DNA of 64,000 nucleotides from Euglena gracilis (GCA_039621445.1 CP154954.1:28700417-28764416), one strand, 5' to 3'. Shown: positions 807 through 41,200, counted from the stretch's first letter. Notes: generated by a model not told the origin, from the sequence alone. Numbers and translations: made by a program.

Positions 807-3800
807 GTCCTCGGCGGGGTGTACCGCACCAGCCTCTCAGACGGCAGCCTGCCCACGGAGAAGACCCTCACCACCCTGTACCATGGCCGGGCCCCCGCTG
901 GGTCGGCATTCGATTCCGCCCGGAACAGTGGTCGCCGTGTCGGGTGCCGCGCAGCGTTGCCCCCCCATCTTTGGCGTTTATGGAGGCGGCGGCCTGTGGG
1001 CACATTTGCGGTTCACGAGTTCGCGCTGGAGCCGCTGGGGCCAGAAGCGGAGGAGGAGGAGGACGACGAGGTGGACGCTGCCCCGGAGGAGGACGACGGC
1101 CGAGGCGTACTGTACACGGAGTACGATGCCTCGAAGTACCAGGTGTTGTGTGTGTGTGCGTGTGTGTGTGCACACGTGTGCGTTTGCATCTGCTCACATG
1201 TGCCTGCCTGCATGTGCGTGCGTGCGTGGTGTGTGCATGCGCGCGCGTGTGTGTGGATTCAGATGCACATATATAGCGTTCATGTGTGCCTGTCGGTGTC
1301 TTTCTTAAGCCGGAGGGGACCTGGCAGGCTGGTAGAACCATCCCTTGATGCTGTTGGCGAACAGAATTGGGAAGCAGAGCCCCCCCCCCCTTAGTCAAGT
1401 TTCCGGGCTCAGTCAAGTTTCAAGCATTCCCTGGCTTGGATCTGTTGGTACCGGAACAACTCCCCGCCAGGTGTGAAAATGGTGCCAGAGGATGAAGAAG
1501 AACGTTGCAAAAAAGAATGAAAATAGCACAAGGAGCAACTTACTGAAGGTGGAAGCAGGATATTTGTACAAGGCAGCAGCTGTGTATGCAGCCGCACACT
1601 CAGCAAAACACACAACTCGAGACACACATGCACACACACACAAACACACGCAGACATGCAAACACACACACAAATGCACAAAAGAACACAATTTATCATC
1701 CACACCACACTGGCACATGCACACACACACACACACACTAACACACCCACGCACATAACCACCCACCTACCCACCCACACATCTGGGCGCACCCACGCAC
1801 CTACGCACCTACAAGATGTGTATGTACGCATGCACAAGAATGTAAGCTGGTACAGACCAATATTACACCTTCCCATGATGCTTGCTCTTCCCTTTGAGGG
1901 CCCAGAGTGTTTTTCTACAGGCAGCGATGATGTGAGCAGGCTCTGTGGCTGCGGGCCAGCAAGTTTCATCTCGTGTTTCAATTCTTCATTGCGTCTCGCC
2001 ACCCTGCGAAGTAGACCGAACAGAGCTTGCCGAAGTCAATACAGAATATTATCCACCAACCTCCCCCCCCCCCAAACAATAGCCCCATAGGGCTATTGTT
2101 CGGACACTCAGTTGAGATCTCAGGGGGGACCATTATTTTTTGGGGGGGGGCTATTTTTGAATTTTTGCTTCGGAAAGCGGGCCCCTGCAGAAATGTCCTC
2201 AAAATGCCCGTTTCACCCCAAAATAACTTTTTTTAGGACCCTCCTGTGAAGATGAGTGTGTGCAAAAAGAATTGTTTCAGAGAAATTGGCGTTTTTTTGA
2301 GTCCTTTGGGTGGCAAATCAGTCACGACGTTCGAGCTCAGGTCATCTGGGGTGGCATCATTCTGGTTTTATTTTTCTGTAAAATCCCTGGGGGGGCTATT
2401 ATTGGGGGGGGGGGCTTTATTCGGGGGGGTCATCCCATCCAAACATGGCTGGGTCCGGTAATCTACCAAAAATCTCTGAACCCCCTCAAATACATTATCT
2501 TTAACATTGCTCCCCCGCCCTCCGCCAGGAGTTCCACGTCATCAAGATCAACAAGTGGGGGGTGCGGCAGCACCGCATCCTGGGCATGGACCGCAGCACC
2601 ATCTACAACATGATGCCCAAGCGAGAGAAGACGTTGGTCGGCAGCGTCCGCCGCACACAGCATCCCGCCCAACCCCCCGCCCCTGCCCCCGCCCAAGCCT
2701 CAGGACTGGTTTGGCTGGTTTCAGGCTTTCGCTGCTCAAATCGCGCAGTGGCTCACTAAGGACGGTGAGAGTGCCCCCCCCCCTTGACTTCTGTCAGCAG
2801 AGCACGAGTCTGAGTTGGGCCGTTGAGGGACCCGGGGAACCCCTCAAGCGGTCTGATTTGTGAGCCCCACGCCGCCTGGTCAGGGGTTTTCTTAAGCTGG
2901 AGGGGACCCCAGAAGGTGGGTCCAGCCAGCCAGCGCTTCTTTCCCTCCCAGTCGGCTGCGGACCCCTTCTCCTGGTGGTCTGCTGAACTAATGTTGGATC
3001 CAGCCCGGCAAAGCTCTTAGGCGGCCTAACTCGCACTTAAGGTTTTCATTTTTAGCTTGCGCTTTGGCGCAAATTTTCGATTTCTTTGAGACCCGGCGGT
3101 AGAACCCACCCTTTTGACCCTCTGGTTCCGCGGAGACCCTCCACAGTGGCGTGTGCATCATTTTCCGATGTTGGGACCTGGGGAACAGGCCCAATTTTGG
3201 TGTTTTTCAGCCTGTTCACCATTTTGAAAAAGGCCCAAAACCCTGGGTTTGACCGCCGGGACACGTGAATTTTTCCAAAAATGGGCCGAAACCCCCGTTG
3301 TGAGTCCCTCGTTTTTGAAGCCTCGGCTGTGTTCCCCGGATGGTGCCACACAGTCCAGGTGACAATTGGCCCTTTTTGTTGTTTTTTTTGGCTCTGTGAT
3401 ATGTCCGTGAAGGGTTTGGTTGCTGAGGCATCCAGAGGGTGGACTCTACACACACGTTGTGAAAAGTTGGAAAAAACGGCATCTCACAGAGTTGTGATCC
3501 CTGGGTGCTTGAAGCGCGAGGAGCGGTACAGCGGGAACCACCCTGGTGGGGGGGTTTGGGGGGACTGAGGGCAAGCCTAGGGACCTCTCCCAACGTCTGG
3601 TGAGCAACGCCAGGCCCCACACTGCCGGGCACAGAAGGCAATGGTTATGGACATTTGCGCTTAAGCGCAAATTTTTAGCTTGCGCTTAAGCGCAAATTAA
3701 AAATTTGCGCTTAAGCGCAAGCTAAAACAGAAGCCGCTGAGTTTGTGGGAGTCCCTCTGATGTGTTACGGTGTGTCGGGGGCCCCTCTCTGCATGGCCAG

Positions 3801-38200: not shown

Positions 38201-41200
38201 ACATTTTTTTGGCCGAAATGGCAGAGTCCAAAGAGGGGGGGGGGTGGGCCGATCCTACCCAGTTTGGACCCCTTCGCGCGTGAATAACTCGGGCCTGGCG
38301 GGGAGTTGGGGGTCAACCCCGGGTGATTCGGAAACTAGGAATCCAGTCGCTCGTGACTGAAAAAATTTTTTTCGGGAACGGGGCCGGGATCATGGTGATA
38401 ATCCGCCGGTTCCCGAGGTGGCCCCGAGGGGGGGGGGAGGGGGGGGGGGTTGGGGGGGGGTTTTCCCCCAGTGGTAAGCTTCGCTCTTACCCATAAAGGG
38501 ATAAGAGCTCAGCGCCCCCCCCCCTAACCCCCCCCCTAACCCCCCCCCTACCCATTCCCCACTTCGTGCCATATATGCACCCCTGGGGGAAGTCTTCTTT
38601 CTGCCGAAGTTTTCAGCAAGGATCCAGAAAACTGATGGGAGTGGAAAGCACAAGGAATTGGTGCACGTGGTTTTAAACAGGATACCGCTAATACCACCTC
38701 ACGTTTCTCTGGCCAAAAGCTGGCGACCTGTTGATCCGTGCCAATCAGAGCCGACAGGGCCGACTCACCCCCCCCCCCACCCAAATGAAACCGGCCTATG
38801 TCCCCATCAGGCCACGGTTCGAGAAGGAAATCATAGACGATTATGTCAAACGCCGATTCGGCGATACGCTCGATAGAGCGCTGTTCCAGCCGTTTTTCCA
38901 AGGCGGCAGACGGAACGAGTTGGGCAAGGCCCTACCCCTCCTGCGCTTCAACCACAGGATGGTTGAAGAAGAACGGAAGCCATGGGATATTTTCCGATTA
39001 CGGAAAAGACAGCTGCAACGTCGGTCTGTGTGGGCTTATTGCGGGGGGGGGGGGGTGCTTCTATTTTGACCGGTTCTTGGTTGTTTTCTTCTGTGCCTGT
39101 AGTGGACCGGGGCCTTTGGCGATGGGGGGGGGTGCGCTGTAATTCAACCCTGCGCTTATTGGGGGGTTAGAGCATCAAAATGGGAAGTGACCATAATATT
39201 GATTGATGATCTACAGGACGTGCATGCACATACACGCGCGCACGCACACGCACACACACACACACACACACACACACACACACACTCACACACACTCGCA
39301 CACACGCACACACACACACGCACACACACACGTACACACACACGCGCACGCACACACGCGCGCACCCCCCCCCCCCACACAAAGCACCCACCCGCCCGCC
39401 CACCCAACACTGTAGCATCGCCAGGGCTGGGAAGGCGGGGCCGCCTTCCCGGCGACCGGGCGATGCAGCAGCTGCGGGAGCGGCTGCAGACGGAGGAGCA
39501 GCGCTGCCTCCTGCTGCGGCACGCCGCCCTGCCCCGCGCCCTCGCTGTGCCCAGCGAGCCTGGCGGGGACCCCAACCCTTTCCCTCTCAATGCATTGGAT
39601 AATGGTGTGGCCCGGCATTTCTGTTGCACTCCCGTCACGCACCACAACTGGTAGCTTTTCATTCCCTCTGCCCCTGTGCTTTCCCATCCCTAACCACTGT
39701 AACCCCCCCCCCCCTATAACAGCCCACCCCCCTCGGGTGAACAATGTGTTTTTTTTTTGCCTCCTGGCAAGAACACAAAAACTGGCGTTTTTTTGCCAGA
39801 TAAGACCAGCCATCTCCAACAGGAGGGCACAAACTTTGGTCATTTTCGAAAAAGGGGCACCATTTTTTGATGCAAAATCTAATAACAGCCCCCTCCCCCA
39901 AGGTTTTTATTGACTGTCTGAATAATAGCCTCGTGGGGCTGTTATTTGGGGGACCACTGAAAATGGGTAGTGTGATGTCTTTTTGCGTGTGAAAGCGTGC
40001 CTCATGAGTGGCCGGGTGTGGCGGGGTGTTTTTTCCCCTGGAACACCCATCCGGTTCCTCGGAGTAAGGCCCATTTTCGACCATTTTTACATGGTAACCT
40101 GGGCAGACCAGGTGAATGTCCACCGCAATGGTCGAATGCACCCATGTAGATGTGCTCATTTCTTGCAACCAACATTCCCGCTGCAAGTTTTTCTTACCAT
40201 TAAACCACGATAATCATGAAACCCACGGGTGCCCTGGCTTTGGAGGCCTCCTGGAACTGTGGAACACCCATTCGGTTACTCGGAGCGAGTATCCCAGGAG
40301 GGGGGTTCTCTATTTTTTGGGCTTTGTGCCGAAGGAAATTTTTGACCGCACAAAATTGACCCCGCAAAAGTGGTCCCCCTACCCTTCCTCCCCAAGGTCC
40401 TTAAACCAACCTCAGTGTGTGTGGGGGGTGGATGTGGGCGTGCACATGTGCTCGCCTTGGATTGGGGTGCCCCAGCGGCCTTGCTGCCCGCAACTCCTCC
40501 GGAGGTCAAGGAGCGGGTGCTCTGGGACCTGTACTGGCTGCTCCGCCTGCGCCTGGACCTGAGCCTGCCCGGCGGAAAGACACACAACGATGGGTGGCAT
40601 CGAAGAAGTCGGGGGGAAGGGAGGGTCCCTGTTACCCAGCCCAAGGTGTGTTGAGGTGGTCACGCCAGCAGTGACCTGTTTTCTGTCCCTCGAGTTGACT
40701 CTATTCTCCGAACCTGTCCAACCTTAAGCTTGCGGGAAATTGTGAACATCATTTTTTTTTGAAGTCACAACTGCAACTGGTGAGAGGGGGGCCACCGCCC
40801 GACGAGCAACCCCAACCAGTGTTTATGAGGAACACTGCCACAGCTTGGTACCAACACCATACCGACAAGGACAAAGCTGTTCTTACAGGACGTAGGAACC
40901 ATACCAGGAAGGGATGCACTGCCAGCGGCAAAGCTTTTCCAAGGCAAGTTTATGGGATCATGGGAACCCGTGAACATGTTCAGTCGTTGCATCGGACATG
41001 CGGGGTGGGGCTGGGTCAAAAGGCCCATCACCCCAGCTTTAGGGGATGGGGGGACAAGGTCCGGGTCCCATTCAGGAATGAGAGGGCAGCACATGTTTAC
41101 CGGAAGTTGTTTACAGTTTTCAGTAAATATCTGTTTTTGTATATTTACGGAAAACCGCAAACCTCCTCTGCTACACACCCGTTCTTTCGGGTACTCACGG

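Follow-up and report, generated by a model that had tools for sequence, protein, structure and literature searches.

When an intron lacks the GT-AG borders of spliceosomal introns, what marks the two places at which it is cut? The question is raised by a 64,000-nucleotide (nt) stretch of Euglena gracilis DNA (GCA_039621445.1 CP154954.1:28700417-28764416; hereafter the window, meaning the whole stretch), for which a preliminary description had proposed that at least 12 junctions in four genes lack GT-AG and can be cut so that intron positions +4 to +6, counted from the 5′ border, pair with positions −8 to −6, counted from the 3′ border. It is very probable that these are the nonconventional (NC) nuclear introns of euglenids, lying in three genes of the Euglena gracilis type, perhaps also in a fourth, and mixed with spliceosomal GT-AG introns, and that they are anchored by a terminal helix and excised by a spliceosome-independent machinery. 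The same identity, with an excision machinery that is uncharacterised, had been put forward in the preliminary description, and it matches both the window data and the literature. The literature already covers the phenomenon, together with its geometry and its occurrence across the genome, and the finding is in this sense a correct rediscovery: the pairing of +4 to +6 with −8 to −6 and the pyrimidine|purine border rules are stated by Milanowski 2014 (PMC3935182) and Milanowski 2016 (PMC4770533), a survey across the E. gracilis genome reported CCAGG at +3 to +7, CCTG at −9 to −6 and pairing of the termini that is present in NC introns and missing from GT-AG introns (BMC Genomics 2024, PMC11170887), and in E. 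agilis 71.8% of introns are NC (Nomura 2025, PMC12501133).

The window has a G+C content of ~53% and contains satellites as well as long AC/TG microsatellites; its exons are short, with about 80–98% G+C at third codon positions; a scan of G+C at third codon positions (GC3) brought out plus-strand exons of four candidate genes. RNA from three studies, namely the contig runs X1 and X2 and the raw RNA-seq runs X21 and X22, was aligned to window positions 700-20699; all sequencing runs found for the window bear the same organism label. The 15 joints listed, out of 85, include 11 without GT-AG (six in gene 1 and five in gene 2) and four with it, and every one of the 11 is carried by one contig in X1, one in X2, and 3–63 raw reads per run (table). 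Two further junctions bring the RNA-supported total to 13: 12909>13404 follows from contig arithmetic, the 57 letters before 13404 being a 37-nt exon plus a 20-nt exon, and 20607>20999 is indicated by loose ends behind 20607, present in each of the four runs (33 and 26 reads), whose sequence is that of window positions 20999-21028. Four more, in gene 3, are fixed by the transcript-derived protein P0001, with none of the 18 compatible cuts being GT-AG. Genes 1–3 together thus hold 17 NC introns and 10 GT-AG introns. No NC border pair is GT/GC-AG or AT-AC; some of these introns begin with GC or GT, and none of those ends with AG. It is confirmed that the odd junctions are real and that the introns are removed from RNA. 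Mapping of transcripts, the check suggested at the outset, bore out non-GT-AG joints in three genes; the fourth gene is predicted only.

The spliced products make sense as coding sequence. As the preliminary description had it, the non-GT-AG junctions restore the reading frame, for the spliced frames of genes 1, 2 and 3 are all open. In gene 2, single exons match consecutive stretches of the Pfam profile Acid_PPase (exon 1 covers profile positions 1-48, E=2.4e-13; exon 2, 49-79; exon 4, 93-122), so that splicing at the odd junctions reassembles a conserved domain that continues without a break across them. For gene 3, models were made by tblastn of P0001 against the window and by enumerating every protein-compatible cut. 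P0001 (eukprot EG_transcript_7993, 449 amino acids) is the only significant protein match of the first coding exon, which points to a euglenid nuclear gene as the host, and it is 95–100% identical to the window exon by exon, with few substitutions, some of them in exon 2. Two Pfam matches lie below the cut-off, PAP_fibrillin in gene 3 (E=0.011) and the PH-like SIN1_PH in gene 1 (E=0.009). NC and GT-AG introns coexist within genes 1 and 3, as had been claimed.

The central observation is the pairing of the intron ends, which we counted as Watson-Crick or G-U pairs within the cut positions allowed by reads or protein; the sample for all the statistics is the 17 NC introns, from three genes of one window. 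Positions +4 to +6 are fully paired with −8 to −6 in 16 of the 17 NC introns and in none of the 10 GT-AG introns. A scan of registers found fully paired triplets starting from (+4,−6) in 16/17, from (+5,−7) and (+6,−8) in 15/17 each and from (+7,−9) in 11/17, while the remaining registers mostly gave 0–5, except for a ghost diagonal produced by sliding. Position by position, pairing is found in 17/17 at +4:−6, 16/17 at +5:−7, 17/17 at +6:−8, 15/17 at +7:−9 and 16/17 at +8:−10, whereas +1 to +3 pair with −5 to −3 at chance frequency (5–7/17). Random pseudo-introns pair at all three positions in 6% of cases when no slide is allowed and in 27% when five slides are allowed. When 3′ ends were permuted among introns with equal slide freedom, the mean over 100,000 trials was 5.9 paired introns and the maximum 13, against 16 for the cognate pairs; the pairing is therefore partner-specific and the covariation genuine.

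The triplets themselves are varied. They are CAG/CTG (about 5), CGG/CTG (2), CAA/TTG (2), CAT/GTG (2) and one each of CTG/CAG, CAT/ATG, CAC/GTG, CCG/CGG, TGG/CCA, GAG/CTC and, with one mismatch, CAC/GCG. All of the covarying pairs named in the preliminary description were found among these except GAA/TTC, which is confined to the predicted gene 4. Folding of the joined intron ends, also suggested there, gave mean energies of −16.9 kcal/mol in NC and −6.75 kcal/mol in GT-AG introns (Mann-Whitney P=3.5e-4), with 5–12 in-register pairs in 17/17 NC introns as against 0–1 in GT-AG introns.

The borders, too, show a pattern. With the cut chosen by pairing alone, a purine stands at the first position of the downstream exon in 17/17 and at the first position of the intron in 17/17; a pyrimidine stands at the last position of the upstream exon in 15/17 and at the intron's 3′ end in 14/17, so that the earlier statement of mostly pyrimidine|purine borders holds at both ends. 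Inside the intron, the commonest bases at the 5′ end are +3 C (12 of the 17), +4 C (15), +5 A (12), +6 G (10) and +7 G (12), and at the 3′ end −9 C (11), −8 C (10), −7 T (13) and −6 G (15); with +4 C and −6 G each in 15/17, there is therefore a strong sequence preference as well. On the exon side, position −3 of the upstream exon is C in 16/17 NC introns (binomial 2.9e-7, the frequency of C in exons being 0.335; for example at 2664, 6115, 8031, 10371 and 12335). This C stands in the context (T)CCY|G irrespective of codon phase, and the hexamer CATCCC|G precedes three introns. The −3 C rule is absent from the border rules given in the consulted passages of Milanowski 2014 (PMC3935182), Milanowski 2016 (PMC4770533), BMC Genomics 2024 (PMC11170887) and Nomura 2025 (PMC12501133). 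Pairing from exon to exon across the two cuts was about chance (−3 of the upstream exon with +1 of the downstream exon in 9/17, −4 with +2 in 8/17), and a target-site duplication, in which positions −2 and −1 of the upstream exon would equal those of the intron, fails beyond the slidable cases when the alignment is judged by eye.

Several points weigh against reading these introns as helix-anchored. In 15 of the 17, triplet pairing decided the exact cut among 2–6 positions that were equivalent or compatible with the protein, just two junctions being non-slidable, although the permutation test granted non-cognate pairs this same freedom. Four junctions are based on protein and not on reads, and with 15 of the 85 joints listed, minor alternative junctions are possible. 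Compared with mononucleotide shuffles, the folds have modest Z-scores (mean −1.7), since the intron ends are rich in G+C. Finally, the first intron of gene 2 is the sole exception to the triplet rule, having an A-C mismatch at +5/−7 within a helix of eight positions whose register is unchanged. An alternative cut of that intron after GGC, which would give GGC/GCC, is ruled out, since the reads connect 10373 with 11836.

As a working model of the helix-anchored reading, the two ends of an NC intron would form a helix that starts 3 nt inside the 5′ border (at +4) and stops 5 nt before the 3′ border (at −6). Most likely, judging from the published work as well as from the window, this terminal helix is the docking site of a machinery that is independent of the spliceosome; single-stranded spacers of constant length, 3 nt for the 5′ strand and 5 nt for the 3′ strand, may then act as a ruler by which it places the two cuts. 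Both cuts would fall mostly at pyrimidine|purine steps and leave a downstream exon that begins with a purine, and a C:G pair would be preferred at +4/−6, with other complementary pairs tolerated in nature. What we observe directly is the removal from RNA, the fixed register, the partner-specific complementarity and the border composition. In bulge-helix-bulge introns of tRNA and rRNA and in transposon-derived introns, too, RNA structure, and not a sequence complementary to small nuclear RNAs, places the two cuts. The likeness is an analogy and no membership is claimed: the bulge-helix-bulge arrangement is 3-4-3, while the helix in the window runs from intron to intron and is flanked by asymmetric spacers of 3 and 5 nt. 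An RNase III-like cut of a fully double-stranded site, leaving a 2-nt overhang, was dropped as a candidate because +1 to +3 pair with −5 to −3 at chance. The excised intron would be released as a circle, as in the circular NC intron cited in the Discussion of Nomura 2025 (PMC12501133); no circle junction (back-joint) occurs among the 15 of 85 joints listed.

Is it then the geometry that is recognised, or the bases? The preliminary description chose geometry over the CAG/CTG sequence. The idea is not new, for Milanowski 2016 (PMC4770533), which counts 33 introns with CAG/CTG among 55 along with numerous compensatory changes, asks if CAG/CTG serves as a signal or as a fingerprint. From knock-in mutagenesis, Nomura 2025 (PMC12501133) derived the code 5′-N3CDG-/-CH′GN5-6|R(exon), which fits 61.2% of the NC introns of E. 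agilis and leaves 38.8% outside, and concluded that there are sequence constraints beyond complementarity and that the machinery is unknown. A machinery that reads these specific bases, with complementarity a by-product of two conserved motifs, nevertheless seems unlikely as the explanation of the window. It is supported by the findings that any single substitution in CAG or CTG abolished splicing and that a complementary change of the middle base was functional only as CTG-CAG (Nomura 2025, PMC12501133), as well as by the base preferences at +4, −6 and +5 described above. However, while the spacer part of the code agrees with the window (a 3-nt 5′ spacer and a 3′ spacer of 5–6 nt, (+4,−6) in 16/17 and (+4,−7) in 1/17), the triplet rule C-D-G/C-H′-G fits only 7/17 introns at any slide and with a spacer of 5 or 6. 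The other ten (CAA/TTG twice, CAT/ATG, CAT/GTG twice, CAC/GTG, CAC/GCG, CCG/CGG, TGG/CCA and GAG/CTC) include seven with RNA support, among them the seventh intron of gene 1, whose CCG/CGG is excluded by the code and verified by RNA. Nine of the ten retain full complementarity with no change of register, where permutation gives 3.2 on average (P=5e-5), and their pairs include T:A and G:C at +4/−6 and A:T, T:A, T:G and C:G at +6/−8. This natural covariation therefore supports the geometry inference here, although the claim was overstated in its original form, given the C and G at +4/−6 in 15/17, the published sequence constraints and a 4.9-kb example that is predicted only and has an in-frame GT-AG alternative. 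Overall, the interpretation offered in the preliminary description is partly supported. We tentatively suggest that the natural code may be wider than CDG/CH′G, admitting any complementary triplet at +4 to +6/−8 to −6 with at least two further pairs (CCG/CGG, TGG/CCA, GAG/CTC, CAA/TTG and CAT/ATG included), together with a determinant not listed so far, the C at upstream-exon position −3, which may instead be an insertion-site preference.

Two other explanations were considered. That the spliceosome itself excises the NC introns, the terminal helix merely bringing unusual splice sites together, is improbable: the two kinds of intron do share transcripts, and the genome-wide survey says that spliceosome independence awaits experiment (BMC Genomics 2024, PMC11170887), but the NC 5′ ends are G(G/C)CCAG-like as against GTGTG/GTATG in the 10 GT-AG introns, the 3′ ends do without AG, and the spacers are constant at 3 and 5 nt. 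The Discussion of Nomura 2025 (PMC12501133) and the abstract of PLoS Genet 2018 are among the published arguments for distinct factors, the latter reporting that NC introns are removed after spliceosomal introns and are unlike tRNA or self-splicing introns. It is scarcely credible that the junctions are artefacts, arising from template switching of reverse transcriptase at short direct repeats or from reads of intron-less paralogues. Positions are ambiguous by 1–5 at 15/17 junctions, through short repeats or protein-compatible cuts, as template switching would have it, but across four runs, drawn from three studies, these joints have the strongest support of all forms, open reading frames and a Pfam domain emerge from them, two junctions are non-slidable, and neither the fixed register nor the 17/17 purine rule would be expected from template switching.

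Set beside the introns of Milanowski 2014 (PMC3935182) and Milanowski 2016 (PMC4770533), those of the window are alike in their variable non-GT-AG borders, pairing register, borders slidable through direct repeats, coexistence with GT-AG introns, pyrimidine/purine border rules and commonest triplet, CAG/CTG; they differ in the share of that triplet, about 5/17 here against 33/55 in the 2016 set, and otherwise in nothing essential. With the survey of BMC Genomics 2024 (PMC11170887), which covered 10 base pairs (bp) on the intron side, they share the CCAGG/CCTG consensus and the terminal pairing. With the code of Nomura 2025 (PMC12501133) they share the spacers and the purine at the exon start, seven introns fitting fully, and they differ in the triplet part in 10/17. 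The window offers a clean instance, backed by RNA, of nonconventional splicing. Two of its features could refine the cis-code, namely naturally occurring, efficiently spliced introns that depart from a triplet code derived by mutagenesis yet stay complementary, and the strong conservation of C at upstream-exon position −3. A refined cis-code would be useful for finding the machinery and for engineering Euglena introns.

Table. Genes, exons and introns of the window, numbered from its first letter. Triplets are intron positions +4 to +6/−8 to −6; reads are raw reads in runs X21/X22.
Feature	Position	Strand	Length (nt)	Triplets	Joint, basis and remarks	Reads
Gene 1, partial	807..8700	+			5′ exons upstream of window; joints, open frame to stop
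Gene 1 exons	807-884, 1002-1142, 2529-2666, 6079-6117, 6805-6921/3, 7531/3-7628/31, 7962/5-8033, 8309 to 3′ untranslated region	+
NC intron G1i1	885..1001	+	117	CGG/CTG	884>1002 in four runs; non-slidable	37/18
GT-AG intron G1i2	1143..2528	+			Inferred from GT..AG ends and open reading frame continuity; not among joints listed
NC intron G1i3	2667..6078	+	3412	CAA/TTG	2666>6079	63/59
NC intron G1i4	6118..6804	+	687	CAT/ATG	6117>6805	47/47
NC intron G1i5	6924..7532	+	609	CAT/GTG	6921>7531; cut at slide +2 of 0-2	30/31
NC intron G1i6	7632..7964	+	333	CAT/GTG	7628>7962; slide +3 of 0-3	26/26
NC intron G1i7	8034..8308	+	275	CCG/CGG	8033>8309; excluded by published code	35/32
Gene 2, MDP-1-like HAD acid phosphatase	10221..13506	+			Six NC introns; Pfam, joints, open frame
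NC intron G2i1	10374..11835	+	1462	CAC/GCG	10373>11836	10/16
NC intron G2i2	11936..12016	+	81	CAG/CTG	11935>12017	16/14
NC intron G2i3	12041..12243	+	203	CTG/CAG	12037>12241; slide +3 of 0-3	19/17
NC intron G2i4	12338..12739	+	402	CAA/TTG	12337>12740	17/21
NC intron G2i5	12777..12889	+	113	CAG/CTG	12776>12890; two contigs	3/5
NC intron G2i6	12910..13403	+	494	CAG/CTG	Contig arithmetic, open frame, pairing; GT start without AG end
Gene 3, plastid-type presequence and fibrillin-like protein	14603..27000	+			9 GT-AG and 5 NC introns
Gene 3 GT-AG introns	14744-15009, 15184-16931, 17027-17436, 17533-19559, 19624-19951, 19969-20479, 24278-24884, 25345-25469, 26083-26419	+
NC intron G3i7	20608..20998	+	391	CGG/CTG	Loose ends behind 20607 in four runs; non-slidable
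NC intron G3i8	21031..24204	+	3174	CAG/CTG	Protein-defined; 6 compatible cuts, 0 GT-AG
NC intron G3i10	25062..25309	+	248	TGG/CCA	Protein-defined; 4 compatible cuts, 0 GT-AG
NC intron G3i12	25517..26004	+	488	GAG/CTC	Protein-defined; 2 compatible cuts, 0 GT-AG; 12-bp helix in register
NC intron G3i14	26506..26803	+	298	CAC/GTG	Protein-defined; 6 compatible cuts, 0 GT-AG
Gene 4, predicted only	33518..39651	+			GC3 scan, sequence, frames, folds
Gene 4 predicted parts	Exon to 33625, GT-AG intron 33626-34450, exon from 34451, then ~4.9-kb intron	+

Gene 1 enters the window in mid-course: a loose end before 806, seen in 23 reads of each raw run, indicates that the gene continues upstream via a CAG| acceptor to an exon outside the window. 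The border region of its GT-AG intron overlaps a repeat at 1141-1258, and alignment rows there were dropped. The intron at 2667-6078 is the longest RNA-verified NC intron, as that at 11936-12016 in gene 2 is the shortest. Between 2700 and 6000 the former has a contig word depth of ~800–1600, against ~120 on exons (X1, X2), and apparently carries high-copy repeat elements. Exons between NC introns can be very short, as with the 39-nt exon 6079-6117 of gene 1 and the micro-exons 12017-12037 (21 nt) and 12890-12909 (20 nt) of gene 2, each of these two flanked by NC introns on both sides. Single-base differences in exons at 2624, 2634, 7577, 8379, 10268, 10325, 11906, 12310 and 13450 occur in ~20–70% of raw RNA reads and are mostly missing from the contig runs; they resemble alleles or strain differences.

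In gene 3, a T-rich loose end at 14602 (15 reads, X22) lies directly after the AG at 14601-14602, with a start codon downstream at 14635; it resembles a spliced-leader acceptor for this gene, the identity of the leader being our assumption. A model with an uninterrupted first exon was abandoned when P0001 revealed the GT-AG intron 14744-15009 inside it. The four GT-AG joints among those listed belong to this gene, and one of them hides a micro-exon of 17 nt (19952-19968), here flanked by GT-AG introns. Most of the NC intron at 21031-24204 is an AC-type microsatellite at 21861-24124 (2.26 kb; periods 4, 8 and 12; Tandem Repeats Finder), and a second AC array lies at 31886-33136.

Gene 4 bears on the size range of NC introns, given in the preliminary description as 81 bp to 4.9 kb; the range from 81 to 3412 nt is RNA-verified, while the 4.9-kb example has an in-frame GT-AG alternative. 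Three solutions are in frame for this candidate intron, namely NC 34532-39453 and NC 34538-39453, both with GAA/TTC, and GT-AG 34554-39415. That it is an ordinary GT-AG intron has close to an even chance: besides keeping the frame, the GT-AG option has a 5′ GT and, at its 3′ end, a C-rich tract followed by TAG, like other GT-AG introns, and the NC options violate a border pattern seen in 16–17/17 verified introns, having G at upstream-exon position −3 and, in the first option, a T at the start of the intron. Against this, folding of the NC ends, in which GAAGG/CCTTC is in register, yields −24 to −25 kcal/mol, compared with −11.9 kcal/mol for the GT-AG ends, and the exon downstream of the NC options starts with GAC, as it does after four verified introns. 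For the protein of gene 4, a representative search gave only P0002, which is repetitive and unrelated, and word-index protein searches (117-2000 and 42-137 amino acids) with the last exon matched nothing. The candidate intron contains a satellite at 34994-37568 (163 bp, 15.8 copies; Tandem Repeats Finder) and a 217-bp repeat of 2.9 copies, the two together spanning 34994-38197, and C-rich CCCTAA-like tracts lie on either side of these repeats, at 34725-34874 and ~38515-38550. Further downstream, additional genes are suggested by open stretches of high GC3, for example one at 40469-40600 and another, found on both strands, at 41941-42132.

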